64,000 nt of DNA from a virus, in IMG/VR virus record IMGVR_UViG_3300045988_098110, positions 14,402 through 78,401 of that record; one strand, given 5' to 3'. A model generated the notes under the pieces. That model saw only the letters and a list, made by a program, of their open reading frames with translations, ran no database searches and was not told where the DNA came from. The stretch's first letter is position 1; every line of letters starts with the position of its first letter. The position numbers were made by a program, and so were the translations under genes. Shown piece after piece: positions 1,948 to 46,900 of this stretch.

Positions 1948-2355
1948 CTATTCCTTCTTATCTTTCAGTTCAACAAAATCTCCAATGCCCAAACGAGCGT
2001 TGTTGATGCAAGACGCAATCCACTCTATCAGATATGCGCTGGCCTCTCCGCCGTGCTCCATACCGATGGCCTCCTCTATTGCGTCGCAAACATGGCTCGC
2101 CTCGTGACTTACAACTCCCACTAACCGCATTGTGGCATGGTTGTCGAACACCACAAGCTCGCCAATCTTGTTGTCAGAGCACCTTCGCACCTCGAAGCAT
2201 GTCACGGCCTCGGCCACACAAAGGTCGAAGTCAACAGGCTTTCCTCTCTCGCTCTTAAAAACACCTTCGAGGTCTTCCGGTCCCAACCCTACGGCCACCC
2301 AAAGCCTTCGTGGGTATAGGCCAGGATCATACTCGTAGTATCCGTATCTCTTCAT
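1948..2355 (-). CDS. HExxH zinc-metallopeptidase-like protein
   Basis: ORF 1948..2472. The likely start is ATG 2355 (MKRYGYYEYDPG), though it could extend to 2472. Motif VVSHEASHVCDAIEE contains HEASH (HExxH). Confidence 0.5.
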   Translation of the reverse strand: MKRYGYYEYDPGLYPRRLWVAVGLGPEDLEGVFKSERGKPVDFDLCVAEAVTCFEVRRCSDNKIGELVVFDNHATMRLVGVVSHEASHVCDAIEEAIGMEHGGEASAYLIEWIASCINNARLGIGDFVELKDKKE

Positions 2356-2479
2356 GCACCGTTCTATCTTTTTGTTATTTCTATGTTGGCGAGGAGGTTT
2401 CGGAACCTCACCCTCATGCGGCCTACTCTCATTCATCCGCATTGCCGTGCATCTGTTGACACCACTCGCCACTGCCTTC

Positions 2480-2895
2480 TGTGGTTTCGGTTACGCTCCT
2501 CTTGCCATCATGTGATGGTAGTTAGTCGTCGCTTATCCCTACTCGCACCTTAGGAAGGACTTTCGATGTGCGTGCGTCCGTTCACGGGTCGTTCGCCAGC
2601 CACATATTGTTATGGTCTTGCGAAACAAGGCAGCCTCATTCGCCGCTCGCCGCTACTGTTTTTTCCACGCCATCTGTTTTGTTCCAATAAGCAAAGAGCT
2701 ACTCCTTTCATCTCATTGTGCCTTCATCGGGGATCGAACCCGCCAGTGGGCGCCAGCCGCCCTGAAGGCTTGATAGGAATCCTGATGTCTCATCTGTATT
2801 CCTCTCCCCACGCTTGGGTACCTGTAATAATCCTAACCTCAAACTTTAGATTTTGAAAAATCAAAAATCAATCAATAACTAAAAAATCTATCTAC
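2480..2895 (-). ncRNA. candidate structured non-coding RNA (unknown class)
   Basis: About 440 nt with no credible ORF inside a tightly packed operon. A TATATTTG -7 box lies on the minus strand at 2896-2903. Several hairpins are present, e.g. AGGAAT..GATG-aga-CATC..ATTCCT at 2775-2813 and CCATCA/TGATGG at 2505-2518. Confidence 0.4.
2720..2769 (-). other. tRNA-like minihelix (acceptor-like stem plus T-arm), not a canonical tRNA
   Basis: Minus strand reads GCCTTCA-GG-GGGCG(gctgg)CGCCC-actg-GCGGG-TTCGATC-CCCGA-TGAAGGC-A. It has a 7-bp closing stem, a perfect TTCGATC T-loop and a 5-bp hairpin. Only 36 nt lie between the acceptor strands. Confidence 0.35.
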
Positions 2896-2903
2896 CAAAT
2901 ATA
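2896..2903 (-). promoter_or_regulatory. Bacteroides-type -7 box TATATTTG
   Basis: Plus-strand CAAATATA. It sits directly after the stop of 2912..3172 and ahead of the ORF-free region. Confidence 0.35.
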
Positions 2904-2911
2904 TTAAAGAA

Positions 2912-3172
2912 TTACATAATCCTGTTGTTCTCGATGAGCCTCATTACATCCTTCACCTTGTAAAGGAATGTGTTCCTTAGCTTATAGGTCGGCAACTGCC
3001 CTGACTCCCGAAGGTCCTTGATGAAATCCTTGCTCACGCCGCCGAGAAAGACGGCCAGCGACTTGCTTGTAAGGAACTCCTGTTCCTGCTCCTTCAACGA
3101 CAGAACTTTCTCTACCACGTTGATGTTGAGACTTGCACGGCATCTTGGCCGCTTCTGTTGGCTTGTCTGCAT
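2912..3172 (-). CDS. helix-turn-helix DNA-binding protein (excisionase/MerR-like HTH_17 type)
   Basis: ORF 2912..3271 trimmed to ATG 3172. FLTSKSLAVFLGGVSKDFIKDLRESGQLPTYKLRNTFLYKVKDVMRLIE matches the pattern typical of Bacteroidales mobile-element HTH proteins. Confidence 0.55.
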   Translation of the reverse strand: MQTSQQKRPRCRASLNINVVEKVLSLKEQEQEFLTSKSLAVFLGGVSKDFIKDLRESGQLPTYKLRNTFLYKVKDVMRLIENNRIM

Positions 3173-3174
3173 GG

Positions 3175-3855
3175 CTATTCCTCCTCCTTCTTCTTGTTTT
3201 GCTCGATGAGCGGCATTACGTTGTGCTTCTTCAGCTCCTCGTACAGGAAGAGCCTTCCTTTCTGCGTCCACTTGGTGTGCATCACCGTTCCGTTCGTACC
3301 GTTCTTGTGGACTATTGGGAACGTGTCGGACTGCACGTAGTCTTGCGCTATCTGCGTCGTAGTGACAGTCTCCTTGCTTGCGAGGATCATGTCAACGTAT
3401 GTCACCTTGGGTTCCATTTCAGCTATCACGCCGTTCAGCTCTACAATCTCCTTGGAGTTTGCCTCAAGTTGCCTCTGCTGTTCCTCTATCTGCTCCTGCT
3501 GCTTTGCCGCGAGCATTAGGGCTTCTGCGAACGACTGCGGAACTTGGTACTGGTTTCTCTCTTTCGTCTCAAGCTCTTCCCAGCGCAACACCAGCTTTGC
3601 TCGTGCCTCGTCGTTGAACTTAGTGGCGATGTATAAGCATTCGGTCTTATTGAGAACATAACAAGGAACATCCTTGTATCCTCCGTTAGGCTGAGCCTGC
3701 TTGTATGATGACAACGCAAAATTGCGTCCTGATACTTTCACCCACGCTTCTTCCATGTTTCGGATGCTTCTCATAACATCCGCATGTCTCATCCCTATCA
3801 CCTCAGCTATCTCAAGCGAGGTCATTGTTTCCTTCTTGATAATCAAGTCTGTCAT
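3175..3855 (-). CDS. Rha-family phage regulatory protein / antirepressor with KilAC-like C-terminus
   Basis: N-terminus MTSLEIAEVIGMRHADVMRSIRNM...YVLNKTECLYIATKFNDEARAKLVLRWEELE resembles Phage_pRha. The C-terminal part TTQIAQDY...KGRLFLYEELKK is KilAC-like. Confidence 0.6.
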   Translation of the reverse strand: MTDLIIKKETMTSLEIAEVIGMRHADVMRSIRNMEEAWVKVSGRNFALSSYKQAQPNGGYKDVPCYVLNKTECLYIATKFNDEARAKLVLRWEELETKERNQYQVPQSFAEALMLAAKQQEQIEEQQRQLEANSKEIVELNGVIAEMEPKVTYVDMILASKETVTTTQIAQDYVQSDTFPIVHKNGTNGTVMHTKWTQKGRLFLYEELKKHNVMPLIEQNKKKEEE

Positions 3856-5360: not shown

Positions 5361-6575
5361 ATGAAGTACCGCGTTTACGTAGACACAACGAAAAAGAGGC
5401 AAGACGAGCAAAGCCCGGTCGTGCTAATATTCGAGGACAGTGGAATGAGGTTCAAAATTTCCACGGGCCTGTTCTCTTCCAGGAAGTTCACAGGAAAGGA
5501 GTTTCCAAAAGAAGAGCCCAACCACAAGGCTAAGACTCTCAAACTTGCGGGAAAGCTACTTGACATCGACGAATACCTACTGATGAACAGCAATGTTCCG
5601 TTCAACAAGGCAAAAGAGGAAATCAAGGCGATTTTGAACGGAGAGGGGAACGCCCTGAAGCCAATCACGTTCTACATGGAGGAGCTGGCCAAGACCAAGA
5701 CGCCGAGCACCGCAAAGTTCTATATCAAGACAGCGAGGAAGATCAGGGAGTTCGACCCATCGGCCACCTTCGACACCATAGATGCGGACTGGCTGCAAAA
5801 TTTCGACACGCACATGAAGGAGAACGGGAACACGACTGTCAATGGCCGCGCCATCCACCTTCGCGACATAAAGGCCGTGTTCAACGCCGCCTTGGCCGAT
5901 GAGATAACGACCAAGTACCCATTCAGGAAGTTTAAGATCAAGGCAGACAGCGTCCCCATCAAGAACATAACACTTGAGCAGCTAAGGGAGCTCAGGGATT
6001 GCAAGGTTGAGCCCAACAGCCGCATTTTCCGCGACCTGTTCCTCCTGTCGTTCTACCTTTGCGGCATCAACCCTGTCGATCTGCTGCACCTCACTAAGGC
6101 AAACATCAAGAATGGGCGCATCGTTTATACGAGGAGCAAGACGCACAAGCTGTACGACATACCTCTGCCACCGGAAGCGAAGGAGATTTTCAGGATGTAT
6201 AAGGGGAAAGACTACCTGTTGGAGGTGCTTGACTATTACGGTGATGATTATCTGCATTTCCTGAGCAGATGGAATAAGATGCTGAAAAGAATAGGAAATA
6301 TGAAGATATGCGAGCGTTCGGACGGCAGGAAGGTGCTGAGGATGGGTGAGCCTATATTGCCGAACCTGACTGTTTATTCGGCCAGATACACCTTTGCGAG
6401 CATCGGTGCGGAGCTTGAGATACCGAGAGAGACCATAGCGTTGTGCCTTGGTCACTCTTGGGCCGATGTCACCGCGCATTATATCAGCTATAGCATGAAG
6501 CGTATAGATGATGCGGTAAGGAAGATCATTGACTATGTGAACGCAGACATTTCCAATGAAAATGACGATATATGA
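5361..6575 (+). CDS. int: tyrosine site-specific integrase (Bacteroidales arm-domain type)
   Basis: 404 aa. The N-terminal arm-binding-like MKYRVYVDTTKKRQDEQSPVVLIF, a SAM-like core and the C-terminal catalytic region (TRSKTHK.., ARYTFAS, LGHSWADVTAHYISY) fit the R..HxxR..Y layout. Confidence 0.85.
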   Translation: MKYRVYVDTTKKRQDEQSPVVLIFEDSGMRFKISTGLFSSRKFTGKEFPKEEPNHKAKTLKLAGKLLDIDEYLLMNSNVPFNKAKEEIKAILNGEGNALKPITFYMEELAKTKTPSTAKFYIKTARKIREFDPSATFDTIDADWLQNFDTHMKENGNTTVNGRAIHLRDIKAVFNAALADEITTKYPFRKFKIKADSVPIKNITLEQLRELRDCKVEPNSRIFRDLFLLSFYLCGINPVDLLHLTKANIKNGRIVYTRSKTHKLYDIPLPPEAKEIFRMYKGKDYLLEVLDYYGDDYLHFLSRWNKMLKRIGNMKICERSDGRKVLRMGEPILPNLTVYSARYTFASIGAELEIPRETIALCLGHSWADVTAHYISYSMKRIDDAVRKIIDYVNADISNENDDI

Positions 6576-8542: not shown

Positions 8543-9025
8543 TTAGTCTTCTTGAATGCCCAGTTTCTTACGCCATTCAGGATCGTGGATAGAACCAACG
8601 ACCTCTGATTTTTTAGTATCGGAACTATTGAGAAAATCTTCTCTTCCAGTCTCATCTTCTGCTGATATAGAATCAGGATTCTTGTGCAGAACAAATATAT
8701 AAGATAAGAAGTCCACGGAATAATAGATTGATAAGTAATAATTACAAACGACGTTTCCGCATTCATCAAAATCCGAGTAATCACTCAGTTCAAACGGATC
8801 AAAACTTAATAAATCTCCCTCGTAAATATCCTTGCCATTCTCGTCGGTTAATCCGGTGAACTGGCAGACGGTATCAGGGTCAACCAATACCGCTTCATTA
8901 CGATTAAGCATAGAATCTTTCTGTCTATCCTTAATGATGTAGGTATTATCACACTCCTTATAGTAATAGCCTTCAATCCACTCACTACTATCAACACTCT
9001 TACCTTTGAATTTGATGGTTCTCAT
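8543..9025 (-). CDS. YopX-family phage protein
   Basis: MRTIKFKGKS...VCQFTGLTDENGKDIYEGDLL...VVGSIHDPEW matches the YopX pattern (REIKFR.., QYTGLKDKNGKEIYEGD, IGNIHDNPEL). Confidence 0.7.
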   Translation of the reverse strand: MRTIKFKGKSVDSSEWIEGYYYKECDNTYIIKDRQKDSMLNRNEAVLVDPDTVCQFTGLTDENGKDIYEGDLLSFDPFELSDYSDFDECGNVVCNYYLSIYYSVDFLSYIFVLHKNPDSISAEDETGREDFLNSSDTKKSEVVGSIHDPEWRKKLGIQED

Positions 9026-9030
9026 AATAT

Positions 9031-9219
9031 CTACTTTTTATGTTTCTTGTGCACCCCTGCGAAAACGTAAAGAAATAATACAAGAATGTTTCCCACCACA
9101 ATTAAGATCATTGGCAGCATTACTAACCACCACGACCAACTGATTGCTCCACAGAGTTTCATCACAATGAAGGCTACCTGAAGCGACACAATCATATAAT
9201 CAATAATTCCAAATTTCAT
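9031..9219 (-). CDS. small two-TM membrane protein
   Basis: 62 aa, two hydrophobic helices and a basic tail (HKKHKK). Confidence 0.5.
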   Translation of the reverse strand: MKFGIIDYMIVSLQVAFIVMKLCGAISWSWWLVMLPMILIVVGNILVLFLYVFAGVHKKHKK

Positions 9220-9243
9220 ATCTCGTTTATAATTTGTTTAGAC

Positions 9244-9525
9244 TTACAACACATTTTTCGACAGCTGGCTCATAATATTATAAGCAGTACCATCTTCCGA
9301 AGATTCTTTCCATAGCTTGGCAAGAGCGCAATCTTGATACAAACCACAATAATGACTAAGTAGCCAGTCGGTAAGTTTACCTTTAACCTTTTTGCAACCT
9401 TCGTCAAGTCGTTTACGACAATGAAAACAACTACATGGCACTTTTATATTTATCCAGTTGTCACGAATTTCATCGTCAGACGTTCCATAAAAGAATTGCT
9501 CGACATCATCAGTTATTATTTCCAT
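9244..9525 (-). CDS. hypothetical Cys-rich protein
   Basis: 93 aa; CSCFHCRKRLDEGC suggests a zinc-binding knuckle. Confidence 0.5.
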   Translation of the reverse strand: MEIITDDVEQFFYGTSDDEIRDNWINIKVPCSCFHCRKRLDEGCKKVKGKLTDWLLSHYCGLYQDCALAKLWKESSEDGTAYNIMSQLSKNVL

Positions 9526-9571
9526 AATATATTCAAATCCTAAATCCAGACAACCTTAAATCCGTTTTCCT

Positions 9572-10138
9572 TCAATCTGACGATATGGGACAAAGTCTGT
9601 CAGGCTTCAACTGCTCGTCCGACAACGACTCCGAGCTATACAGCGACAGGTCATTATGCCAGTGGTCTTCGTCGCCTATATCGATGTAAGGGTTCTCGGG
9701 TATCTCGCAAGTTTTCACACTTGTCACCCACTCGCTCGGTATGTACGAGCCAAACACCTCCATCTTCTTTTGCAAGGGGAACGATTGGTGCAAGGGACAG
9801 TACTTTCCGGCGAACTTATAGCACAATACCCTATGCAGCTTTCCGTCCTGCGACTCAAACGAGACAATATGGCGGTTCCCGCGGTGCAAGGCGGCCATTA
9901 CGCGAAGAAAGTCCTCCCATCCCACATCCCTGTGCAGCTCGCCTCTGATATTGTTGAAATAGCACTCCCAGAGGTCACGGCGCATGAAATACCAAAGAAA
10001 GTCCATGTCCGTTTCGTTCATCTGCGGAATACTCTTCCACACAAACTCACGCCATACGTGCTGACGGAGGTGCGAGCCTCTTGCGAACCCCTCGATGGCG
10101 CAGAGGAAGTCGTGGTGGTCAAGACTGATGGTAATCAT
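9572..10138 (-). CDS. hypothetical protein
   Basis: 188-aa ORF with a 4-nt overlap with the upstream gene. Confidence 0.55.
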   Translation of the reverse strand: MITISLDHHDFLCAIEGFARGSHLRQHVWREFVWKSIPQMNETDMDFLWYFMRRDLWECYFNNIRGELHRDVGWEDFLRVMAALHRGNRHIVSFESQDGKLHRVLCYKFAGKYCPLHQSFPLQKKMEVFGSYIPSEWVTSVKTCEIPENPYIDIGDEDHWHNDLSLYSSESLSDEQLKPDRLCPISSD

Positions 10139-10341
10139 AAGCCACCTCCCTCCTGTTCTGCGTTCAGCTCATCGAGCATGTCCTGCGATACGGCGAGAAG
10201 GTGCTCGTAGTCGCCTGACGTGGCCTCGTCGGCGTACTTGGCCTTTTCCTCGACAGTCCTCCCACATTCATTCATAGCGCGGCCAACGTAACTAATGATG
10301 GCAATGGCGTTTCCGTCCTGCCCTTCTAATGTGTACTTCAT
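10135..10341 (-). CDS. hypothetical small protein
   Basis: 68-aa ORF, translationally coupled to 9572..10138. Confidence 0.5.
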   Translation of the reverse strand: MKYTLEGQDGNAIAIISYVGRAMNECGRTVEEKAKYADEATSGDYEHLLAVSQDMLDELNAEQEGGGL

Positions 10342-14270: not shown

Positions 14271-14798
14271 TTAGTCTTTGTTGCGGTCAATCAATCCGAT
14301 GGCGTAGTGGTTCGTGTCGTAGGTGTACGACATGGTGCGCTTTTTAATCGTGCTGTAATATTCGCCACAACAAGCCAAAACAAGCTCATCGTCTTCGGCG
14401 TCCTCGATCTCGTCCTTAATCTTCTCCATCTTATCGAGGAAACAACGCAGAGAGTCGAAGTCATCGAAGTCAGATACAAAGGGTTGCACCTCGTTCTCGT
14501 AGAACCCCTCCAAGTCCTTCTTCGAAAATTCACGGTAGTCATCGCCATATTCGTCAGCCGAACGCTCAAAAGGTTCGTGTGCCTGACATCCCGTTCGATA
14601 CCACATGTCCCATCCGTCACGCTTGTGGAAAATCTCAATGCTCAGCCCGTTCTCCTTCGCCAACTCCTCGGCCTGCTCAAATGAGTCGAAGCCGATAATG
14701 GCCTTCTTCAAATCCTGAGGATAACCGTTCCTCGCTGATGTTGTGTCGATCAACTCCAAGCCGTTCTCCGTTGCTATATCTTCAAAGTTGCTAATCAT
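14271..14798 (-). CDS. strongly acidic hypothetical protein
   Basis: 175 aa. Hand count gives 43 D/E against 20 K/R, with runs such as DFDDFDS and EIEDAEDDE. Confidence 0.6.
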   Translation of the reverse strand: MISNFEDIATENGLELIDTTSARNGYPQDLKKAIIGFDSFEQAEELAKENGLSIEIFHKRDGWDMWYRTGCQAHEPFERSADEYGDDYREFSKKDLEGFYENEVQPFVSDFDDFDSLRCFLDKMEKIKDEIEDAEDDELVLACCGEYYSTIKKRTMSYTYDTNHYAIGLIDRNKD

Positions 14799-15228: not shown

Positions 15229-16335
15229 TTATTCTTCCTCCTTTCTGTCGGTGTCTTGGTTATTGTTATTGAGTTCTTTGTAATACTGCTTAATGTCGGA
15301 GTCGCTCATGCCCTTCTCTCTCATGATCCTGTAGTCTGCACTGTCACGGCGAAGGTTCACGCGGTCCTCGTAGACTGTTCGCAGGTTGTAATAAGCGTTA
15401 CGCACGCGCTCAAGGGTGAGCACCTTCCCGGTCGATGACATGATACCCATTTGTTGAAGGGTGTACGACGCTTGCGAGAAGTTGTTTTTCGTTAGCTCTG
15501 TGAAGTTATTTGTGCATTGACGGACAATTGCCCATATCGCTTTGTTACAAGGCTTCTCAGCGGCTTCTTTCTTACGTCTCTCGGCGGCTGCCGTTCGGGC
15601 TGCTGAAAGGTCGCTTTTCTTCGGGCGCCCGAGCTTCGTTACCACCTTTCCGGATTTGGATGAAATAAACTGGCCGTCCTCCTCGAGTTTTTTCTTCCTG
15701 ACATCCAATGCGCTTTGCGTGCGCTCTTGGATTAACTCCTTCTCCATCTGAGCCGAGAAAGAGAAAGCGAACAGGAGCATTTCGTCGATGGCCCGCAAGT
15801 GGGCGCAATCAAGGTCGATGCCCATCTGGACTATGACAAGGCGCACACCTCTTGGCTTCAACTCGTCGTTAACAAACTTGTTGATATCGCTCATGGAGCG
15901 GCCTATGCGGCTAACCTCTGATACGATAAGGGTATCACCCTTCTTCAGCATAGGTAGCACGATCTTTCCAAGGTTTCTGTCCTTGTAGGTCACACCGCCG
16001 CTTACTCCCTCGTCGCTCACCTCTTGCGTGGCTGTCATGTTATGGTCTTTCAACCACTCGTTGACGGTCCTTTCCTGCTGCTCAAGGGTCTGTTTCTCGG
16101 TTGATACTCGGCTATATATGATAACCTTTGGTTTTTTCTCCTCCTCTTCTTTCGCTTTCTTTTCTCGTATGGAAATCTCGTGCTTAACGTTGCATAGCTT
16201 ATCCCTCCTGCAAACGACCTTGCCGCCTATCACATTGTGACAGACGCACTCCTTGCAGTAAGCTTTGTGGTCGGGAGGAATTATGTCGTAAAACTCCTCT
16301 CGTCCGTCCTGTGTTATGCGCTTTGTTAGTTCCAT
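15229..16335 (-). CDS. serine recombinase (resolvase/invertase catalytic domain) with Cys-rich N-terminal extension
   Basis: KVIIYSRVSTEKQTLEQQ...DEGVSGG...GDTLIVSEVSRIGRS is the resolvase N-terminal domain with the catalytic Ser. An N-terminal extension of about 70 aa contains CKECVCH..CRRDKLC. Confidence 0.8.
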   Translation of the reverse strand: MELTKRITQDGREEFYDIIPPDHKAYCKECVCHNVIGGKVVCRRDKLCNVKHEISIREKKAKEEEEKKPKVIIYSRVSTEKQTLEQQERTVNEWLKDHNMTATQEVSDEGVSGGVTYKDRNLGKIVLPMLKKGDTLIVSEVSRIGRSMSDINKFVNDELKPRGVRLVIVQMGIDLDCAHLRAIDEMLLFAFSFSAQMEKELIQERTQSALDVRKKKLEEDGQFISSKSGKVVTKLGRPKKSDLSAARTAAAERRKKEAAEKPCNKAIWAIVRQCTNNFTELTKNNFSQASYTLQQMGIMSSTGKVLTLERVRNAYYNLRTVYEDRVNLRRDSADYRIMREKGMSDSDIKQYYKELNNNNQDTDRKEEE

Positions 16336-27956: not shown

Positions 27957-30900
27957 TTAGTTTAAGAAAACCTTCAATCCTGCTCCTCCCTTGGAGTGTC
28001 CGAGTTTCATGACGCTGCTCCAGTTGTCGCAAACCTGCCGCAAGTACCCAACTTGCTGCTGCATTAAACTCACCATGATATTGTTGGCGCCGTCTCCTGA
28101 CTGTGACGCAATACCGCCAAGGCGCTGCAACAGGGTGTCCTTGATAACCCTTACGTCCGCCTGTTGCGTCGCAAGGTAGTAGCGTATCGAGTTGATGATG
28201 CTCTCCAATGCCTGAGCGGTTGCTTCGGTCACAGATTGAATACCCTGTTGCAGAGATGAGATATTGGAGGTTCCTGTAGGATTTACTCCAAGCATCTCAA
28301 ACATCTTTTTCAGATATTCGTTGTAAGCTTCAAGGTTTTGGTCTTTCATCTTCTTGATTTCCGCAAGCTCATTTGCGGTGACATCGAGTCCGTTGTTTCC
28401 TCCCTCGCTACCTTTGGTCACCGCCTTGTCAATGCTTTCCAATATCGGCTTGATGAACTTTTCTGATGCTCGCTGCGTAACCTGCTTTGTAAGCAAGTTG
28501 TTGAAATATTCGTCAAACTTCTCGTTAAGTGCATCAAGCGAGTCGCTGCCTTCATTGAAAGCATCAACCCAAGCGTTCGCAAAGGCTTCTGCTGCCGACT
28601 TATAGTTGGCCTGTGAACCAAAACCTCCAAGTTCCTCTGTGAGCGTCTCTGAAAGCTCTGTTATGGTGTCGTTGATAGAGTCTATCTCTGAACGCCAGCT
28701 TTGGATCTTGTCTTCGTCTGCATGCTTTCTCCCTTGCTCAGCCTTAATCATGGCTTCATAGGCCGCTTTCTCTTTCTCCAAGGCTTCAACAGACTGCTGG
28801 TTGTACTTATACAGTCGCTCTGTGCTGAAAGCGTCATCCATTGATTTTTTCAGCTCCTCGTATCTCTTTTGGAGTTTGGTTATGGCTCGCTCCTGCCGCT
28901 TAATCTCTTTGTCTATGCTACTTTCGTTGTTGAATAGCTTAACAACACCAGTAAGAGCTCCAACAGCGCCGGAGACAACTCCTGCATAGTTTCCGCTATA
29001 GCTATAGTATGAACCTACCGCTTGACCGATGCTGTCAACAATGCCTAACGTGTTTTGCAGTTGTTCATCGGAGCCACCGAGGGCTTCAAACAAGCCACTG
29101 AACGCCGATGCCATTGACGAAACAATATCAGTGATGTCTGTAACTGACTTGGAGAACTTTGCCTTCGCTTGCTCTTCTTCGGTCATAATCGTTCCGAGCT
29201 TCGCAATCTGTTGGTCTGTCAGGTTGAGTTGGCTTTTGAGGCTATCCCTGATGCCTTTATTGATAGACAACCTGAATGCTGCGGCCTTTGCCTCGTCGCT
29301 CCCTTTCCCGTTAATCTTCTCTATCTCGTTGTACTGCAACTCCAGCAACTCAACAAGTCTGTTAGATGCCTCAAGCTGAACCTTTAGGTTCTGACTTTGG
29401 TCGTTAAGCTCAACGTATCTGGCAACACCACCATTCTTTTTCAAGTCCTTACCAGCCTTAATCATTTCCTTAAGACCACTTGTGAACGCCTTGAATGGAT
29501 TACGGGAGTTGCGAACATCGTCAACTTTCTTGATTTGGTCCACGACGGCCTTCAACTGTGTTGGGTCGAGGTTCTTCAAGTTGTCGCGCATATCACGAAG
29601 GCGTGTGGCCATTGCGTCGAGCGCCTTAGAGGAAACTTGGTCAAGATTCTCAAATAGTCGTACATACATGTCGCTATTCTGAAAATCCTTCCATTTGTTT
29701 TCGTCAGTCTTACGCTTGTACTGCGTATCAAGATTCTCTTGTAGCTGCTTCTGCAAATCAGGAGTCTTTGATATTTCAGTATTGTTTTGCAGTTTGTTTC
29801 TTTCTGCAATATACCAACTGTCAAGCTGGAGTTGGTCGCTAAGCTGCTGCTTGTATGCCTTAATCAGCTCTTGCGCCTGATCCACTTGGTCTTGATGCTC
29901 CTGCTTGTTGACATTCTTAACACGGCTCTGGTAATCCTTATAAATGTCGCTATCACCAAAGCGCTCCTTGAGAACATTTGCCGTGTTGGCAATGTCGTTG
30001 TTATATCGCTTGATAACATCCTCTCCCCATTTGTTGATGTTGCTTCCGTACGTACTCTCGTAATCCTTGAAGATGTACTTGTTGAACTCGTCGTCAATGG
30101 CATTGCGCACATCATCGAAAGACGTAGCGATGTTGCCAAACATAGACTTGATATATCTGTCTGACAAGCCCTCTCCTTTGAGCTTCTTGTAAAGCTGCAA
30201 CCCGTTGAAGGCCTCGTCGATGTTGCTCGAGATACCTTCGCGCATCTTTTCATACTCCTTCTCTGAGATATGGAGCCTGATTTCTGCAGAAGTACGGAAC
30301 GCACCGCTTTTCTTGACGAGTTCTTTGTATTTAGCGCCAAGTTTTTCTATCTCTCTTGCTGTTGTGGCATCATCAGGAAGAATAGAGTTGGCGTTAAGAC
30401 CTACGTTCTGTGCAGCCAGCTTGAACATGGAGCGTGTCTTTGTTAGGGCTTGCTCCTTGCTCTCTGACTTTAGCAATGTGTTGTACTGCTGATTCATATC
30501 CTTCAGGAGTGATATGCGCTCTTGAAGGATGTCACGCTGCGCCTTGTTATTGGTATGAGTTTTTCTATTCTTTTTCTCAAAAGGATCAATACCAAATAAA
30601 TTCTTAGAAGAAATTGTATTTTCTCGCATTCGGCTTTTAGCCAAAGCCATTAACTGCTTTTTTGTAATAGTTTTTGCATCTGCAAAAAGAGTGCCTTGTA
30701 GTAAGTCTTTAAGCTTACCTACTACATTGTATTCTTTAACAGTAGCCTTTGATACGTTTTTGTAGAATTGCTTCCATTCTTTTGCAGTTTCAGCAAACTC
30801 TTTGCTTTTATCGAGATACTCCTTAATACTACTTGTGTTCTTGATTTCGTTAACAGATAGAGTAATCCCGTATCTTTTCTCCGCAAAGAACCTGCTAATA

Positions 30901-33900
30901 AAGTCATCAACCCAACTAACTTCTTTTTGTGTGTTATTTTTGTCAATATTAACCTTGATACTATAAGCCTTATAGAGCATATCTTTTTCGATATCGCCCC
31001 ATCCTCTTTTTAGAGCTTCGTTATCTATTTGTATTTTTAGTTTCTTTTTCGAAGCCTCGTCTTTGTATTTGCTTACGTCACCAAAAACACTTTGTGCCTC
31101 TTTGCGCACTTCTTCCAAATTGTTTATGTAGGTTTCGTAAGCCAACGTGAATTTAGATAATTGCTCATCCGCATTTGCACCAATACCCCAATCATAGCCA
31201 TTGTTCCCTGTACCTCCAAGAATACCGACCATGTTTTGCTTTGAGCCAAACCATCCGCTCTGTATGTATCCAATTTCTTTTAATGCATTGGCAACTTTAG
31301 CGTAGTAATCGAGAAGGTCTTGTCCCTTTTGAGGACCAGCTGAGAGCTGCTTGAACATTTCCTTTTGGCTATCAGTAAGATTTACGCTTTCTTTTGACAC
31401 CTGCGCAAGAATAGAACGTATATCGTCACCTTTTTGCAAAAACTCACCCATTGAAGAAGTATATTCTTGCATATCAGTTTCAATATCATCGTCCCCCATA
31501 AGCCAGCCTTTCTTTTTGTTAGCCTCGTACTTTGCATCAATAGCACGCATATTATCAAGGAACTCTTGATAGTCTTTAAGGAATATGTCATATTGTTTCC
31601 TCGCTTCTTCTTCGGAAATGTTCACCCCTATTGTTACCTCGAAGCCCTTCTGATTCATTTCTTTTACAAGATCTTGTAAGGCTTTCTGGATATTTGTTTT
31701 AGCTTCAGCATCTATCTCTTCAACCCTAACCTGTGCCGTATAGTATTCTTCGGTGTTTTTAGCCATTGCTTCTTTGTACTCGTTGTTAACACTTACGAGT
31801 TCCTGAACCAAAGCTATAACGGAAGTTAATGCAGCAAGAGGTAAAGATGCTTTGAAGGTATTTCCTAATGCGGTAAAGGCTGAACCTAATTTGCCTGTAT
31901 CACCTGTTAGTGCAGCCATAAGAGCCTTGAATACGCCAAGCCTTTTATGCGAAGCCATAATATTTGCAGCTGTTTGTCCCCAAGCTCCGTTCGTAAGCTT
32001 TGTTGTGACATAGATAGAAGCAAGAAGTCCTGCGAATATTTTCGCTACATTAACAATAGTTCTCCAACTATTCAAAAGTTCTGTTACACTACTAATCAGG
32101 CCTTTGAATGTACCTTCGTTAGACTTGCCAATGTCGTTGAGCATCACATCAAAAGCATCCTTCAAGTTGGAAATCTTACCTTGGAGAGTTTCTGCCTGGA
32201 TCTCTTGCATATTGTAAAAGATCCCTCCTTTGTCGGTCATGCGTTGAAATATGGCCTCAACATCCTCAAATGTAACCTTTCGCTTAGAAATCATATCCAC
32301 GATTTGCGCCGTGGTGTATGCCTCACCCTTGACCTCCTTGAAATAATCCTGAAGCTCTCCGTATATATTGATACCAGCCTCGGTAAACTGGCGCACCTCA
32401 GAGCCGCGGAGGTATGCAGCGGCCTTGACTTGTCCGTAAGCAAGGATAAGCCGACTCAGGTCAACACCAAGTCCAGCCGACACATCGGCAAGGCGTTTGG
32501 TTGTGTCGTAAAGTTTATCAGACTCTATGCGGTATGCAGAGAGTTGGCGCGTGTAGTCTACCAAATCCTTGATGCGGAATGGCGACTTAACGGCAAGCTC
32601 AACTGTCTTGTTGAAGATTTCGTCAGCCTTTGTCTTGTTCTGCAAGATAGCTTCAAGTGAACGCTCTGAAAGCTCGAACTGGCCTCTCACCTCCGCGACT
32701 TGCCCTATAAAGTTCTTGATTGTATCAAGAGAGAAAGTGAAGGCAACACGTTGTGCCAAGCGTGACAGATAGCCTGCCATGTATGATGTTTGCTCTCCTA
32801 AGTTACGTGCGTTCACTCCTGCCTCTTTCAAAACCTTGGAGTGCTGCTTTATGGCCTCGTTTACGGATGCGAGATTCTGTTTGTAGTTCTTGTCGGTCGT
32901 ATTAAGGCTAAGCCTTGCCTGCTGCAACTCCTTTATGGCTGCAACATGCTCTCGCAATGTGGCTGCGCTGCCTGTATTTGTGAGTACGGCATTTGTGTCG
33001 GCGTAGTATGCAGAGCCACTATTTGCCCTTTGACTTGCCGCCTTGGCTTCTTGGAGTACCTTGTTATGGCGCTCTATTGATGCGTTGAGCGTGTCAAGTT
33101 TTTGCTTGTATTCAGCATCCGTAACAGATAGTTTTCTCTTGGCTGCTTCAAGGTACTGCACGGCCTTTGCTTGTCTGTTTAGCGTGTTAGCAGACTCCGA
33201 GAAGCTTAATGCCCCTTGGTACGTTGTGTTTTGCTTATAGTTGCTTGCTTGGTAAGCCTTTTGCTTTGCGGTGTACTCTTTTTGTGCTGCGGCCTCAACA
33301 CGCCTCGCTTTTGCTTCTTCTGCCTTGGCTTCTGTTTCGGCGGCCTTCTTCGACTCAGCTTCTTTCTTTGCCCGGAGCTGAATTGACTCTTTGAGCATCT
33401 GCATCTCTGCTTTGTAGCGAGCGTCAGACATGGGGAAATCTTGGCCGTACTGCTTAAGCGACTTCGCCAAGGCAACCTGTTGGTTAATAGCTTGGTTGTT
33501 TTGGATAATGGCCTGTTGCTTCTCTCTCAGAGATGCGATAACCTGCCTGTTGGTCTCGTACTCCTTGACGTTTGCCGCATAGAGAGCCTTTTCGTCATTA
33601 TAAACGACGCCACCTTTTCCTTCTTTAATGCGCTGCTGAGTGTACTCGTATTGGCGCATAGACTTCGTTAACTCCTCCTGTCGCTTGGTGGTCTTGTCGA
33701 TCTGTGCTTGAATGTTTTGCCAGTCGGACACAGATTTTGATAAGTCAGGAGAAGATGCGGCTTTGTGTTGGGATGCCGCCATACGGTCGATGTGTTGCGC
33801 AGTCTGACTTACGACGTCGCCCATCTTTGAAAAACCTTGTGTTACCTTGGCTGTTCCAAGGCTTGACAGGCTGCCTGACATTGTGCCTGCTGCCGTCTTG

Positions 33901-34106
33901 ATGGTTCCAAGCTTTTGAATTATTTGGTCGAGCGCACCGATGAACCCATCTGTCGAGCCCTTCATAGACTGACATGATGCGTTTATAACAGCGGCGGTTT
34001 GCTCCGATGTTTTTTGCAACTTCTCCAACCTTTCGTCAGCCTCTTTTATCTTCTTTAAGGCTGACTCGGGTATGAGAAGGACGCTTCCTAATGCAGATTC
34101 GCTCAT
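27957..34106 (-). CDS. tail tape measure protein
   Basis: 2049 aa, largely coiled-coil. The TMP core motif is LSERSLEAILQNKTKADEIFNKTVELAVKSPFRIKDLVDYTRQLSAYRI...AGLGVDLSRLILAYGQVKAAAYLRGSEVRQFTEAGI. It follows the chaperone pair. Confidence 0.9.
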   Translation of the reverse strand: MSESALGSVLLIPESALKKIKEADERLEKLQKTSEQTAAVINASCQSMKGSTDGFIGALDQIIQKLGTIKTAAGTMSGSLSSLGTAKVTQGFSKMGDVVSQTAQHIDRMAASQHKAASSPDLSKSVSDWQNIQAQIDKTTKRQEELTKSMRQYEYTQQRIKEGKGGVVYNDEKALYAANVKEYETNRQVIASLREKQQAIIQNNQAINQQVALAKSLKQYGQDFPMSDARYKAEMQMLKESIQLRAKKEAESKKAAETEAKAEEAKARRVEAAAQKEYTAKQKAYQASNYKQNTTYQGALSFSESANTLNRQAKAVQYLEAAKRKLSVTDAEYKQKLDTLNASIERHNKVLQEAKAASQRANSGSAYYADTNAVLTNTGSAATLREHVAAIKELQQARLSLNTTDKNYKQNLASVNEAIKQHSKVLKEAGVNARNLGEQTSYMAGYLSRLAQRVAFTFSLDTIKNFIGQVAEVRGQFELSERSLEAILQNKTKADEIFNKTVELAVKSPFRIKDLVDYTRQLSAYRIESDKLYDTTKRLADVSAGLGVDLSRLILAYGQVKAAAYLRGSEVRQFTEAGINIYGELQDYFKEVKGEAYTTAQIVDMISKRKVTFEDVEAIFQRMTDKGGIFYNMQEIQAETLQGKISNLKDAFDVMLNDIGKSNEGTFKGLISSVTELLNSWRTIVNVAKIFAGLLASIYVTTKLTNGAWGQTAANIMASHKRLGVFKALMAALTGDTGKLGSAFTALGNTFKASLPLAALTSVIALVQELVSVNNEYKEAMAKNTEEYYTAQVRVEEIDAEAKTNIQKALQDLVKEMNQKGFEVTIGVNISEEEARKQYDIFLKDYQEFLDNMRAIDAKYEANKKKGWLMGDDDIETDMQEYTSSMGEFLQKGDDIRSILAQVSKESVNLTDSQKEMFKQLSAGPQKGQDLLDYYAKVANALKEIGYIQSGWFGSKQNMVGILGGTGNNGYDWGIGANADEQLSKFTLAYETYINNLEEVRKEAQSVFGDVSKYKDEASKKKLKIQIDNEALKRGWGDIEKDMLYKAYSIKVNIDKNNTQKEVSWVDDFISRFFAEKRYGITLSVNEIKNTSSIKEYLDKSKEFAETAKEWKQFYKNVSKATVKEYNVVGKLKDLLQGTLFADAKTITKKQLMALAKSRMRENTISSKNLFGIDPFEKKNRKTHTNNKAQRDILQERISLLKDMNQQYNTLLKSESKEQALTKTRSMFKLAAQNVGLNANSILPDDATTAREIEKLGAKYKELVKKSGAFRTSAEIRLHISEKEYEKMREGISSNIDEAFNGLQLYKKLKGEGLSDRYIKSMFGNIATSFDDVRNAIDDEFNKYIFKDYESTYGSNINKWGEDVIKRYNNDIANTANVLKERFGDSDIYKDYQSRVKNVNKQEHQDQVDQAQELIKAYKQQLSDQLQLDSWYIAERNKLQNNTEISKTPDLQKQLQENLDTQYKRKTDENKWKDFQNSDMYVRLFENLDQVSSKALDAMATRLRDMRDNLKNLDPTQLKAVVDQIKKVDDVRNSRNPFKAFTSGLKEMIKAGKDLKKNGGVARYVELNDQSQNLKVQLEASNRLVELLELQYNEIEKINGKGSDEAKAAAFRLSINKGIRDSLKSQLNLTDQQIAKLGTIMTEEEQAKAKFSKSVTDITDIVSSMASAFSGLFEALGGSDEQLQNTLGIVDSIGQAVGSYYSYSGNYAGVVSGAVGALTGVVKLFNNESSIDKEIKRQERAITKLQKRYEELKKSMDDAFSTERLYKYNQQSVEALEKEKAAYEAMIKAEQGRKHADEDKIQSWRSEIDSINDTITELSETLTEELGGFGSQANYKSAAEAFANAWVDAFNEGSDSLDALNEKFDEYFNNLLTKQVTQRASEKFIKPILESIDKAVTKGSEGGNNGLDVTANELAEIKKMKDQNLEAYNEYLKKMFEMLGVNPTGTSNISSLQQGIQSVTEATAQALESIINSIRYYLATQQADVRVIKDTLLQRLGGIASQSGDGANNIMVSLMQQQVGYLRQVCDNWSSVMKLGHSKGGAGLKVFLN

Positions 34107-43945: not shown

Positions 43946-46900
43946 ATGAAGAAAGGTGATTTATACATAAAAACATCATCTGTTGATAGTAGCGGGAAAG
44001 AGGTTGTTTCTCTTTTCCCGTCAGAAACTCATGCTCTTAGGCTTGGCTCATATACGTACAATAGCAAGAGAATGGGAGGTGCGCCAACATTAACTGCAAC
44101 AGTGTACTCTCGCAAACCCATTATATGGGAAAAAGACGTATTTGTCGAGTTTCTTGGAGAGCGATACTACGCAAGTTATACTCCGAGCATGAGCGAGGAC
44201 AACACCTCTATGATGTTTAAGTATGACATAGAGTTTGTTTCAAGACGTGAACTGCTTGACAATACACTTTTCTTCGATGTTGTTTCTGACAATGAACAGA
44301 CACAGGATTCAGACAAATATCGCTCAAATCAAACATCGTTCAAATTCGGTGGAACAATAAGCGAGTTCGTTTCTCGCATCAATAGCTCTATGGCCTATTG
44401 TGGACTTTACTTGCCAAACTCGAAAGATAAGGGGTATCATGTTGTTATTGATGAAGGTTACGGGACAGATGATGTAAAAGAGGTTTCTTTTGAGGATCAG
44501 TATCTCTCAAATGTGCTCCAGCTTATCTATTCAACCTTTGGCCTCACCTATTATTGGATTGGTAAAGAGTGTCATGTTGGCAAGCAGCAAAACGACTTGA
44601 GCGTAAGCGGTAATTACGGAAAGAAATACGCGCTTCGTTATGGCAGAAACGATTCCTTTTTGTCGGTTAGTAAACAAAACTCCAACAACAAGATTGTTGA
44701 CATGGTAACTGGCCATGGTTCATCGGACAATATACCTTATTACTATCCGAACGACGACGAGTACGGAAAGGCAGTTTATAGCACAGAAAACTTTGACGAG
44801 TCTTTAGTAAAGAATATAGACCTTGGAAAAGTTTTTGGATGGGACGCAAACATATATAACGACACGCTCATTCTTGGGAATAACAAGAGAAAGGAGTACA
44901 CTGCATCTATCTTCGGTGCATCAAAGTACCTTGTTTCTACCTATTCAACAAAAATTGCAGAAGGCATAGGGGAGTCTGTGCGAAAAGTGGCCTCTACATG
45001 TCAGATGGGCGAAAGGGTGAGTAGCTGGAATAGCGGTTCGTCAAGCCGTCTTGTCGGGGAGAATGTTATGTATCTTATGTTTGAGCTGAACGGTATATCG
45101 AACGGAAGCATCAAGCTTGACGACATTTCATTCAACGCAACCGAGGATGATGGCCAGGAGAAACTTGGACTCACGTTCAAGTACGAAAACTCATATTATG
45201 TGTTTGATGATGCAGATATAAATACCGCATTTAACGCACTAAAAAACGCTGGAAAAGAAAAAGAAAACTCAGGGAATGATGGATATTTCGCTGGTGGCGG
45301 GTCAATAAGCTCTAATGCTTCAAGCTCAAAAGAGTGGGAGTTCGGAGATAGCCTGACAGGTTCATCCAACTACACAAGATCTGACGGAAAGACGGTTGTG
45401 TTCATCAAATCGGGAAAGTGTACAATAGTTATCGGATGCAAGGTTTCCGCTACGAATATTACTGTCGCTTCTGGGACTAAACGTATGACAAATGTATCTA
45501 TGGTTGCCAAAGGCAATTTGTCATACACGTATAAGCCCAAAAGCGTTTACTATTTCGACTATGGCAACGGAAAGAGTATAGGCTACGAAGATAGTGGTGT
45601 CGTTATTAACAACATAGACAGTATACCAAGTAACGAAATTGAGTTTTTCTTCAACGGGATAGAATGGAAGACTTCAAGCAACATCAGTAACAGCGCGTCA
45701 AAAATCCGCATTACTGATCGTGTTTGGATATTGCCTACGCAATACCTAATGCCAAGCATTTACAGGAATAGCCTTGGAGTTGAACGGTTCTATTACGCTC
45801 TTAACGGAACGCACAAAAAGCAAGACGGAAGTGACGAGTATTACTCATTTCAAAACGAGTATAAGCAAGGCAACCCTCATCAAGGAAGCGTGTCTTTTGA
45901 AGACATAAAGCCTACCATAAACGGGGTGAGGAACGATGTTATACAGAAAGACGGACTTGGTCAGTTGTTCGGAGAAATTGCCGATGTTGCCTTTGATAGC
46001 GCAGATAGCGATGTCAAAGACGACAATGACAATTACATACACTCATATTTCTATATCAAACTCCATAAGTTTAGCGGAGAGTTTGGATTTGACCTGTTCA
46101 AGCATGCGTTAGCAAACGAAACGGCAAAGATAAATCTAATCAAGAGCAACGGGTGCCCAGCCTGTTCTTTTGAGATAGGATGTCATTGGGATGCACAAAA
46201 GGCCAACTGTTACAATATTGTGCAGACAGATGAGGATGGAAACTTAAAATCTTACCGTAAAGACTATAATGATTACATCCTTCCCGATGCGTTGGTAGAG
46301 GAGCAGAAGAGAAACCAAAACTCTGAGCTTGAAGAGTTGTGGATATGTGTCAAAAAAGACACATCCACGCTTGGAGTCATTATGCCTAATGCAAGTGCAG
46401 GATTCAAGCCGCAGAAGGGCGACATGTTTGTTATAACAGGAATAAAGCCACCAAAGACTCTTACTACAGCAGCAGAGAAAAGGCTGGATGATGCCTTGAT
46501 AAAATATATGAGTGAGAACAATGAGGATCAATTCAGCTACTCTGTCAAATTCTCACGAATATTCCTTCAGGAAAACAAGGACTTTGCCGAAAAACTAAAC
46601 GAGAACACCAAACTCTCTATTCATATCGACGGAGAGTATGATGATGATGGTAACGAAGTGTTTCATGACGTTTTCGTAAGCGAATACACTGTTAAAGCAG
46701 ATGATAACACTTTGTGCGAAATCAGTGTTTCCCTATCCAACTCACTTTCCGCAACAGAAAGCGATACAAAGAATATTGTCAATGCTGTTAAGGGAGATAT
46801 TCTTCAAGGTATTGCCGGAAGCCTTTCAGGAGTTAGTAGCGGTTTTAACGCAAGCGTAGCCGATAAATACTACCTCTCAAAACGAACGTATGACACCGCT

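Follow-up and report, generated by a model that had tools for sequence, protein, structure and literature searches.

Clusters of tRNA genes in phages are usually viewed as a plain supply of decoding tRNAs. GOLLD and ROOL, two kinds of large structured RNA, are often found in prophages and beside tRNAs, are possibly co-transcribed with them, and their biochemical role is unknown (PMC5737381). A second arrangement is seen in gut phages of Bacteroidota, where theta ribozymes, a minimal form of the ribozymes that resemble the one of hepatitis delta virus (HDV), are conserved immediately 3′ of tRNAs and have been proposed to mature the tRNA ends (PMC10879173). Here, we describe an RNA locus in a 64,000-nt stretch of viral DNA, positions 14,402 to 78,401 of the IMG/VR record IMGVR_UViG_3300045988_098110; this whole stretch is called the window below, all coordinates are its own, and features lie on its minus strand unless stated otherwise. 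The locus fills a gap without open reading frames (ORFs) between a gene for an excisionase-like helix–turn–helix protein (HTH_17) and an HExxH gene. From 5′ to 3′ it consists of two leader hairpins (H1 and H2), a tRNA-like element without an anticodon (the minihelix), a conserved three-helix RNA (domain 1), a smaller hairpin (domain 2) and a second tRNA-like element. It is non-coding, it has homologs in related phages, the order of its modules is constant, and its helices covary. New here are a family of RNAs that Rfam 15 lacks and tRNA-like elements that are truncated in nature; the class to which they belong, tRNA-linked phage RNAs, is known. We give about an even chance to the reading that this is a co-transcribed tRNA-cluster RNA locus, in which a truncated tRNA is kept as a processing handle for a structured RNA.

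The RNA locus after the HTH_17 gene is shared by some 14 related phage lineages, all of which come from metagenomes of gut type. They are temperate Bacteroidales phages, probably of Prevotella; among the source labels of the HTH homologs, one reads “uncultured Prevotella sp.” and one “Caudoviricetes sp.” We found 85 homologs of the HTH_17 protein, and nearly all of the IMG/VR relatives and the contigs of 11 further HTH homologs carry a gene-free gap of 0.5–2 kb after the HTH gene. The order of HTH gene, H1/H2, first tRNA or tRNA-like element and domain 1 is constant in lineages A–N, with more hairpins, tRNA-like elements or tRNAs after domain 1. It is the identity of the first element that changes: tRNA-Arg(CCU) in lineages D, F, G, H, I, and K, tRNA-Asn(GUU) in lineage E, tRNA-Ser(GCU) in lineage J, a degenerate cloverleaf that ARAGORN does not call in lineage M, and an anticodon-less minihelix in lineages A (the window), B, C/N, and L. 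Further tRNAs (Met, Phe, Gln, Lys, Ser, and Arg) usually stand downstream in the array. The initial annotation of this DNA had treated the region as an insert in the early operon; the comparison shows instead a conserved RNA-gene slot of the whole phage group, occupied in most relatives by tRNA-Arg(CCU) and more tRNAs. As a side observation on these arrays, one lineage-E contig (L141) carries, immediately 3′ of its tRNA array, a 411-aa RRXRR + HNH (IscB-like) ORF at 8953-10188 (minus strand) that the near-identical loci L091 and L092 do not have; apparently an RNA-guided nuclease of the IS200/605 type has recently inserted itself there.

Judged by sequence comparison, domain 1 and not the minihelix is the most conserved element of the locus, and it had been overlooked in the initial annotation. 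A covariance model (R1) built on five lineages, in which helix P1 has 9 bp and a bulge and helices P2 and P3 have 5 bp each, gives exactly one match in each of the RNA-bearing loci (19/19) and none in 496 kb of related phage DNA; its single match in the window, which defines domain 1 there (2553..2699), runs from 2699 to 2553 with 40.2 bits and E = 1e-6. P1 is a long-range helix that joins 2674-2666 with 2574-2565 and has one bulge, P2 lies between a conserved AGUA and a conserved GAA, the internal loops are rich in purines, and P3 is enlarged in the window by ~40–50 nt. The conserved strings are CUUUG..AUUG, (G)UAUGCGUG, AAAGUA, CGUGAC, and GAAAAGGACGCACGACAUACGAAAG. Domain 1 begins 11–57 nt past the first tRNA or tRNA-like element in 12 of the 13 lineages, and 246 nt past it in lineage D. 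RNAalifold recovers P1, and folds of single sequences recover P1 and P2.

Covariation was assessed by pair counts that ignore the kinship of the sequences. In the 19-sequence alignment of domain 1, 93.3% of cells are paired, and in 13 of the 19 pairs both partners have changed; covariation scores 0.51 vs. 0.13 in shuffles (0/500 reach 0.51), and controls slid along the alignment are only 14–46% paired. Fitting the alignment to the model inflates these counts somewhat, but chance is unlikely given how large the effect is and how varied the pairs are in type. P1, for example, reads GUAUG-CGUG/CACG-A-CAUAC in most lineages and GCAUGUG/CACAUGC in lineage G, and P2 occurs as GCGG/CCGU, UCGG/CCGA, GUGG/CCAC, GCCGG/CUGGC, GGUG/CGCC, and ACAUC/GGUGU. 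Because G.U pairs occur and R1 matches one strand only, the structure can be placed on the sense strand of the operon. The modeled domain is a rod with conserved purine-rich internal loops (UAAAAAAGUA opposite GAAAAGGACG), which suggests that it may serve as a protein-binding scaffold or a decoy.

Three further structural readings were considered. A possible helix P0 (UCUUU/AAAGA) is not maintained in lineage G and clashes with a pairing of AUUG(A/G)N to the 3′ tail, and it was kept out of R1. The flanks of P2 resemble a loop E (AGUA/GAA), a reading that is kept in most lineages, not in lineage I, and remains a suggestion. By eye, the motifs GAUGAAC, ACAGAA, and GGUAAG are similar to those of RNase P RNA; however, their order differs and Rfam gives no match, and this reading was rejected. 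Lineages H, L, and M also share a spacer motif, AUUCC-AA-GUUCC-GUUGUAA-GGAAU-CGA-GGAAC, which stands upstream of domain 1 and downstream of the first tRNA or tRNA-like element. Both of its stems are fully complementary only in the crossing register of an H-type pseudoknot, and lineage K has a diverged counterpart in this position; the stretches concerned are L161 3967-4010, L171 3386-3430, L172 2158-2200, and L170 3457-3500. An HDV-like fold is not a fit for the motif.

In the window, the slot upstream of domain 1 is taken by the minihelix (tRNA-like element 1; 51 nt, 2719..2769), which is defined by its sequence, its minimum free energy (MFE) fold, and pair counts. Read from 2769 to 2719, it runs GCCTTCA GGGCG GCTGG CGCCC ACTG GCGGG TTCGATC CCCGA TGAAGGC A. 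The acceptor-like stem is perfect (7 bp, GCCUUCA/UGAAGGC) and is followed by a discriminator A, with CCA not encoded; the T arm (GCGGG UUCGAUC CCCGA) has four Watson–Crick pairs plus a G.A and a canonical T loop (UUCRANY); and a single 5-bp hairpin with a 5-nt loop (GGGCG GCUGG CGCCC) stands between them, leaving 36 nt between the acceptor strands. The MFE fold matches this shape. The 7-bp acceptor-like stem, the T arm, and the 36-nt spacing on the minus strand had all been described in the initial annotation and are confirmed from the sequence; its transcription of the element had two surplus G before the hairpin, its count of 36 being nonetheless right. The window has a single combination of acceptor stem and T arm of this kind, and of 200 dinucleotide shuffles 8 contain one (mean 0.045). 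The minihelix has no D arm, no anticodon arm with a 7-nt loop, and no overall cloverleaf of a canonical tRNA, and its acceptor pair 3-70 is C-G, vs. the G3.U70 of tmRNA. ARAGORN finds no tRNA or tmRNA gene in the window, and the Rfam tRNA model (RF00005) has no match in 2300-3050 even at E ≤ 10, which bears out the description of the element as tRNA-like but no normal tRNA.

Six homologs of the minihelix from lineages A and B keep all 11 acceptor and T-stem pairs intact (100%); two of these have changed in a compensatory way, one acceptor pair from U-A to C-G and one T-stem pair from C-G to U-A, while the interior shows an 18-nt indel and many substitutions. As far as these alignments allow one to judge, the acceptor and T arms are under selection. 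Between A/B, C/N, and L, the minihelices are unrelated in the sequences of their acceptor and T stems but follow a common plan, in which a 7-bp acceptor stem and a T arm are combined with one hairpin or, in lineage B, two. Their T loops are canonical, UUCGAUC and UUCGAUU in A/B and UUCGACU in C/N and L. All of their internal hairpin loops contain GG (GCUGG, GAUGG, AAAGG/GAGGG, AGGGC, CGGA, and CGGU). In real tRNAs, G18-G19 of the D loop touches the T loop, and it is possible that the GG-bearing hairpin loop mimics this side of the tRNA elbow. The acceptor and T stems of the minihelix are predicted to be coaxial, its T loop is intact, and sequence flanks it as 5′ leader and 3′ trailer, which is the layout of a minihelix substrate of RNase P and RNase Z. 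The T arm of a lineage-A relative, L165 (ATGGGTTCGATTCCCAA), is identical to that of the lineage D tRNA-Arg (ATGGGTTCGATTCCCAT) at 16 of 17 positions, a match that fits, and does not prove, descent of the minihelix from that tRNA via internal deletion.

How the locus would be transcribed, processed, and used we infer from this arrangement. It would be read as part of the operon transcript or from a promoter directly downstream of the HTH gene, and its tRNA and tRNA-like elements would act as punctuation, with host RNase P cutting on their 5′ side and RNase Z on their 3′ side. Such cuts would detach the upstream mRNA, release the structured RNA as a stable molecule, and free the downstream mRNA. 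In the lineages with minihelices, the first tRNA would have been cut down to its acceptor stem, T arm, and a hairpin loop containing GG. The repeated loss of anticodon and D arm with retention of acceptor and T arms is what would be expected if processing, and not decoding, is selected at this slot. Among the roles proposed earlier for the element, that of a processing signal fits the comparative data best, insofar as sequence comparison can speak to a role.

The same comparative data bear on a different reading, in which the minihelix and the second tRNA-like element are dying tRNA pseudogenes of a former array and at most the domain is functional. The second element (2386..2471) was missed in the initial annotation and emerges from an RNAalifold consensus as cloverleaf-like: its acceptor-like stem of 7 bp (UGGCGAG/CUCGCCA) is combined with an arm resembling a D arm, a hairpin whose loop is 15 nt long, and a T-like arm (GAGG UUCCGAAA CCUC). 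It is no canonical tRNA, and neither ARAGORN nor Rfam calls it. For six sequences that represent lineages A, A2, B, G, and H, RNAalifold gives 24 pairs, 8 of them compensatory; nhmmer detects homologs in lineages H and G and is silent in lineage E, where an element that ARAGORN labels “tRNA-???” has, by reading, the same AGAUACCGUUCUUAUCG insert. Other non-canonical tRNA-like elements occur in the arrays of relatives (L083 3765-3842, L151 ~3515-3625, and L084 2859-2926); they have acceptor and T arms with odd or expanded cores, ARAGORN is silent on them or Rfam scores them below threshold, and phages of this group seem to accumulate aberrant tRNA-like genes. Just upstream of the second element, at 2473/2474, alignments show a 76-nt deletion in the window relative to close relatives. 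The deleted module includes the hairpin GUCGG-CUCUCA-CCGAC, which is kept in L002, L166, and L095 and partly in L165.

A number of facts suit decay: sister phages have intact tRNAs at the same slot, the degenerate cloverleaf of lineage M looks like an intermediate, the window copy has suffered the 76-nt deletion, mismatches pile up in the interior hairpin of the minihelix in L165 and L166, and the near-identity of the T arms of L165 and the lineage D tRNA-Arg fits descent. Drift, however, does not readily account for acceptor and T stems that stay fully paired via compensatory changes while the interior varies freely, or for three unrelated minihelix sequences (A/B, C/N, and L) that have converged on acceptor, GG-loop hairpin, and T arm. 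It also sits poorly with a second tRNA-like element that covaries and is 86% identical between the window and lineage B, as against 69% for the neighboring HTH gene at the DNA level; the modules of the gap range over 79–87% identity in the same comparison. We thus consider neutral decay rather unlikely, if the most serious competitor to a retained processing handle.

Another feature of the minihelix, that the parts it retains are exactly those seen by elbow- and acceptor-binding proteins, would also suit a tRNA mimic acting as a decoy. Such a decoy would titrate a host factor that binds the acceptor end or elbow of tRNAs and so shield phage or host tRNAs during infection; candidate targets would be toxins directed at the acceptor end, defense nucleases, and tRNA-modifying enzymes. 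Phage tRNAs are known to counter tRNA-targeting defenses, and the position in the early operon beside phage tRNAs would be apt. Nevertheless, no defense or toxin partner can be assigned, a minihelix without an anticodon loop would be useless against anticodon nucleases, and the role would have to be lineage-specific, given that most lineages have a normal tRNA at the slot. A decoy function is on these grounds improbable, and the processing handle remains the reading that we follow.

Conservation at the 5′ edge of the locus raises a further alternative. The leader hairpin H1 (2807..2818, CCCA-AGCG-UGGG) has equivalents upstream of the first tRNA or tRNA-like element in 12 lineages, with 96.7% of cells paired, 4 of 5 pairs compensatory, and a loop of the form xGyG, the segments having been picked by eye and the alignment assembled by hand in a way that favors pairing. 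H2 (2772..2806, from the MFE fold of the region) pairs GAGAGGAAU with AUUCCUAUC around an inner stem GAUG-AGA-CAUC; at its position, lineage B has GGGGUG/CAUCCC and GGUUG/CAGCC, and the other lineages have a GC-rich hairpin of unrelated sequence, so that by eye a hairpin is present in every lineage. Domain 2 (2499..2527), which lies downstream of domain 1, is a hairpin with conserved flanks, GACUAACUA-[CCAUC ACAU GAUGG]-CAAGAG; its counterparts in 10 lineages share the flanks (G)AACU(A/G) and (U/C)AAG. In an alignment built by hand with the loops taken out, which favors pairing, 98.2% of the cells pair and compensatory changes are seen in 5 of the 6 pairs. The two hairpins that the initial annotation had placed at 2775-2813 and 2505-2518 do exist, the former being H1 and H2 together (2818-2772) and the latter lying within 2527-2499. 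Covariation, whose absence it had named as one ground for refutation, is seen on pair counts in the stems of the minihelix, in H1, and in the 2527-2499 hairpin, and by eye H2 varies in a compensatory way, so that this check does not refute the observation.

Conserved hairpins at the start of the locus, with the conserved loop xGyG of H1, could mean that the region is a cis-acting leader which controls read-through, stability, or translation of the downstream early genes and yields no free RNA. A put- or nut-like antitermination RNA formed by H1 and H2 would be one such device. In keeping with this, the locus always lies within an operon, and no intrinsic terminator precedes the next gene: the only terminator-like site in 2200-3100, at 2630-2646 (GCGGCGAAUGAGGCUGC then CUUGUUUCGC), falls inside the window-specific expansion of P3 in domain 1 and is at chance level (1 found vs. 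0.6 expected). The genes downstream of the RNA locus, on the other hand, vary by lineage (HExxH protein, DUF1064, RuvC-like, and others), and in most lineages tRNAs and hundreds of bases stand between domain 1 and the next ORF, which would be unusual for a cis-regulator. A purely cis-acting leader is accordingly given little probability, and a released RNA flanked by processing signals is preferred to it. Whether the locus has its own promoter is a related matter. The sequence TATATTTG (2896..2903), a match to the Bacteroidota -7 promoter consensus TAnnTTTG, is a putative promoter only. The initial annotation had taken it as the locus's own promoter; the box is indeed present at 2903-2896, whereas its promoter status would rest on one common 8-mer. 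TAnnTTTG occurs 54 times in the window vs. ~40 expected, and a promoter at this site is for that reason no more than plausible. No sigma-70-type promoter was found.

The boundaries of the gap also had to be revised. It had been described as ORF-free from 2473 to 2911; the absence of ORFs holds, while the extent is 2356-2911 (556 nt), as the downstream gene starts at 2355 and not at 2472. The HExxH gene (135 aa, 1948..2355) can be given the start ATG 2355-2353 because 139 relatives of its product align from the residue following that Met; with the HTH_17 gene (86 aa, 2912..3172) on the other side, this sets the bounds. Within the gap, the only candidate for a protein is a 96-aa ORF on the plus strand (2566..2856). 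Its existence is what a protein-coding reading can draw on, but its frame is lost in relatives, frame-breaking indels separate near-identical relatives, and the relatives' proteins show no similarity to the gap. The IMG/VR contig 3300045988_101743, for instance, a relative with 96% identity, is set apart by indels of 7 nt and 76 nt. Because no frame is conserved and close relatives differ by these indels, the gap is non-coding, and the earlier suspicion that the ORF is spurious proved right. The gap is likewise no degraded copy of the ORFs that lie upstream of the HExxH gene in relatives, as tblastn against it gave no similarity.

A tRNA fragment at the slot might also be the remnant of an attachment site (attP/attB). 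Fragments resembling the 3′ end of tmRNA do lie near the repressor or integrase ends of relatives, yet in the minihelix the complementary 5′ acceptor strand is present and covaries, and the element is 2.6 kb away from the integrase, at an internal site that is conserved across the relatives without exception. An attachment-site remnant or a real plus-strand protein is contradicted by the comparative data and can be given almost no weight. The tmRNA-like fragments themselves are sub-threshold matches to the T arm at the 3′ end (L084 10-49, L086 329-368, L083 1637-1651, L161 2006-2020, and L172 352-366, all on the minus strand) that adjoin the repressor or integrase end of several related prophages; they are probably attachment sites in the host ssrA gene, and the window has none.

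The two flanking genes were examined separately for a link to the RNA region, which does not travel with the HExxH gene but does travel with the HTH_17 gene. In every RNA-bearing locus found, the RNA region lies directly 3′ of the HTH_17 gene, its conserved upstream anchor; after one HTH homolog (L167), ordinary ORFs follow and there is no RNA domain. The HTH_17 product matches Pfam HTH_17 with E = 8.6e-6 and 26.4 bits, narrowly below the curated cut-off of 27. The HExxH gene is downstream context outside the RNA locus, and its product has no Pfam match. In 77 of the 79 more distant relatives of this gene that were kept, another ORF ends at most 22 nt upstream, with upstream gaps of 48 and 169 nt in the remaining two; the domain 1 model has no match in any of the 79 loci, and ARAGORN finds no tRNA in the 25 of them that were scanned. 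The wider neighborhood is that of a temperate phage, with an integrase, an S24 repressor, a Rha/ANT antirepressor, the HTH_17 gene, DUF3310, and a RuvC-like gene, and with tape measure, terminase, and portal genes further along the window. Side observations on the window itself are a 2668-aa ORF with collagen triple-helix repeats directly after the portal gene (43946-51952, plus strand), a 2049-aa tape measure protein (27957-34106, minus strand), and a serine recombinase (15229-16335, minus strand) besides the tyrosine integrase (5361-6575, plus strand).

Searches of databases and literature place the family outside what has been described. The tools that the initial annotation had suggested, Rfam and ARAGORN (in tRNA and tmRNA mode), were run on the window and assigned no family and no tRNA or tmRNA: Rfam 15 returned nothing for the whole window at gathering thresholds and only noise at E ≤ 10 for 2300-3050 (Plastid-ycf2 on the opposite strand and a snoRNA), and on nine relatives it returned tRNAs only. 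With the window region and lineage I as queries, blastn against GenBank phage records found only that a 53-nt piece of the tRNA-Arg gene matches a Lactobacillus phage. When 185,579 reference genomes were scanned with the motif for a host copy, 39 matches came up, all random (in other phyla or within unrelated sequence), and a metagenome scan and a viral pattern scan revealed no lineage beyond those known, these collection scans being pattern-based and liable to miss diverged members. Literature searches for the motif strings and for RNA motifs of Prevotella prophages found no description.

A number of observations weigh against the locus being a tRNA-cluster RNA with a processing handle. The family is narrow, at ~14 lineages and with no true match to the motif pattern in the reference genomes. 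The alignment behind the pair counts of domain 1 was fitted to the model, and those of H1 and domain 2 were hand-picked. The MFE z-score for the entire gap is unremarkable (-1.15), and the promoter box is an 8-mer common in the window. Simple pseudogenization of a tRNA does occur at this slot, as the degenerate cloverleaf in lineage M shows, and the locus may be part-decaying in the window, which is without the 76-nt module of its relatives and in which the interior of the minihelix is drifting.

A bolder version of the same idea is that everything from the leader hairpins to the second tRNA-like element makes up an unclassified class of phage RNA with a role of its own, and that at least three lineages have independently stripped a decoding tRNA down to an anticodon-less remnant of acceptor and elbow, retained solely as an RNase P/RNase Z processing signal. 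We put this forward tentatively, as a possibility that falls short of an even chance. If true, the RNA would be a tRNA-linked RNA like GOLLD and ROOL, for example a scaffold in anti-defense or tRNA metabolism, and the arrangement would be a counterpart in a bacterial virus of the mammalian MALAT1–mascRNA principle. More generally, our results suggest that a conserved structured RNA outside Rfam 15 is the center around which one group of gut Bacteroidales phages has built its tRNA cluster, and that a tRNA beside a structured RNA can drop its decoding parts and keep its processing parts; if so, maturation rather than translation may maintain it. Confirmation would add a new family to the few prophage-borne tRNA-adjacent RNAs (GOLLD, ROOL, and the T4 stable RNAs), whose functions are poorly understood, and would provide a natural bacterial case of tRNA-like elements used as transcript punctuation, as well as a small system for experiments, with ~150 nt of RNA and the minihelix of 51 nt.

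Compared with known systems, the locus shares features with several. Like theta ribozymes, domain 1 lies 3′ of phage tRNAs in the same kind of phage and host. However, it is a nested three-helix rod, whereas theta ribozymes are nested double pseudoknots (P1, P1.1, P2, and P3) with a catalytic C in J4/2, and it starts 11–57 nt (in lineage D, 246 nt) after the tRNA, whereas the theta cleavage site lies within ~5 nt. An H-type pseudoknot is conceivable for the spacer motif of lineages H, K, L, and M, with only 7 nt where the P3 of an HDV-like ribozyme belongs. There is no Rfam match to an HDV-type ribozyme in the window region or in nine relatives, and a theta identity was set aside, as the topology appears unsuitable. 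tmRNA and the bacterial Y RNA YrlA are tRNA mimics with an acceptor or T-arm elbow in which the anticodon arm is replaced by a long helix or an RNA body, which in tmRNA has pseudoknots and a tag reading frame. The minihelix, too, is an anticodon-less tRNA mimic; unlike in those RNAs, its acceptor strands are just 36 nt apart and domain 1 lies outside the tRNA-like fold, and neither tmRNA (RF00023) nor Y RNA has an Rfam match in the region, ARAGORN in tmRNA mode likewise giving none.

RNase P, RNase Z, the CCA-adding enzyme, and the enzymes that modify the T loop need no more than an acceptor stem stacked on a T arm. The minihelix resembles such substrates, at the level of sequence, in having a 7-bp acceptor stem beside a T arm with a canonical loop, just upstream of another RNA that cleavage could release. 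Known minihelix substrates and MALAT1 mascRNA are laboratory or eukaryotic, whereas the element described here is natural and phage-encoded, has an extra GG-loop hairpin, and encodes no CCA. Species 1 and 2 of phage T4 (rnaC/rnaD) are small stable RNAs that lie among phage tRNA genes, are made on the same transcripts, and mature by tRNA processing, and their function is unknown. Their arrangement is like the one proposed here, by analogy only, as phage and host are unrelated. With respect to GOLLD and ROOL, the differences are that neither the window (at E ≤ 10) nor nine relatives (at E ≤ 1) match the Rfam model of either, and that domain 1 is only ~110–150 nt long, narrow in taxonomic range, and built of other helices and conserved loops. 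Even so, the locus is a modular RNA region with embedded tRNAs or tRNA-like elements in a temperate-phage setting, and tRNAs flank domain 1 in relatives; these prophage-borne, tRNA-adjacent structured RNAs are the closest known kind.

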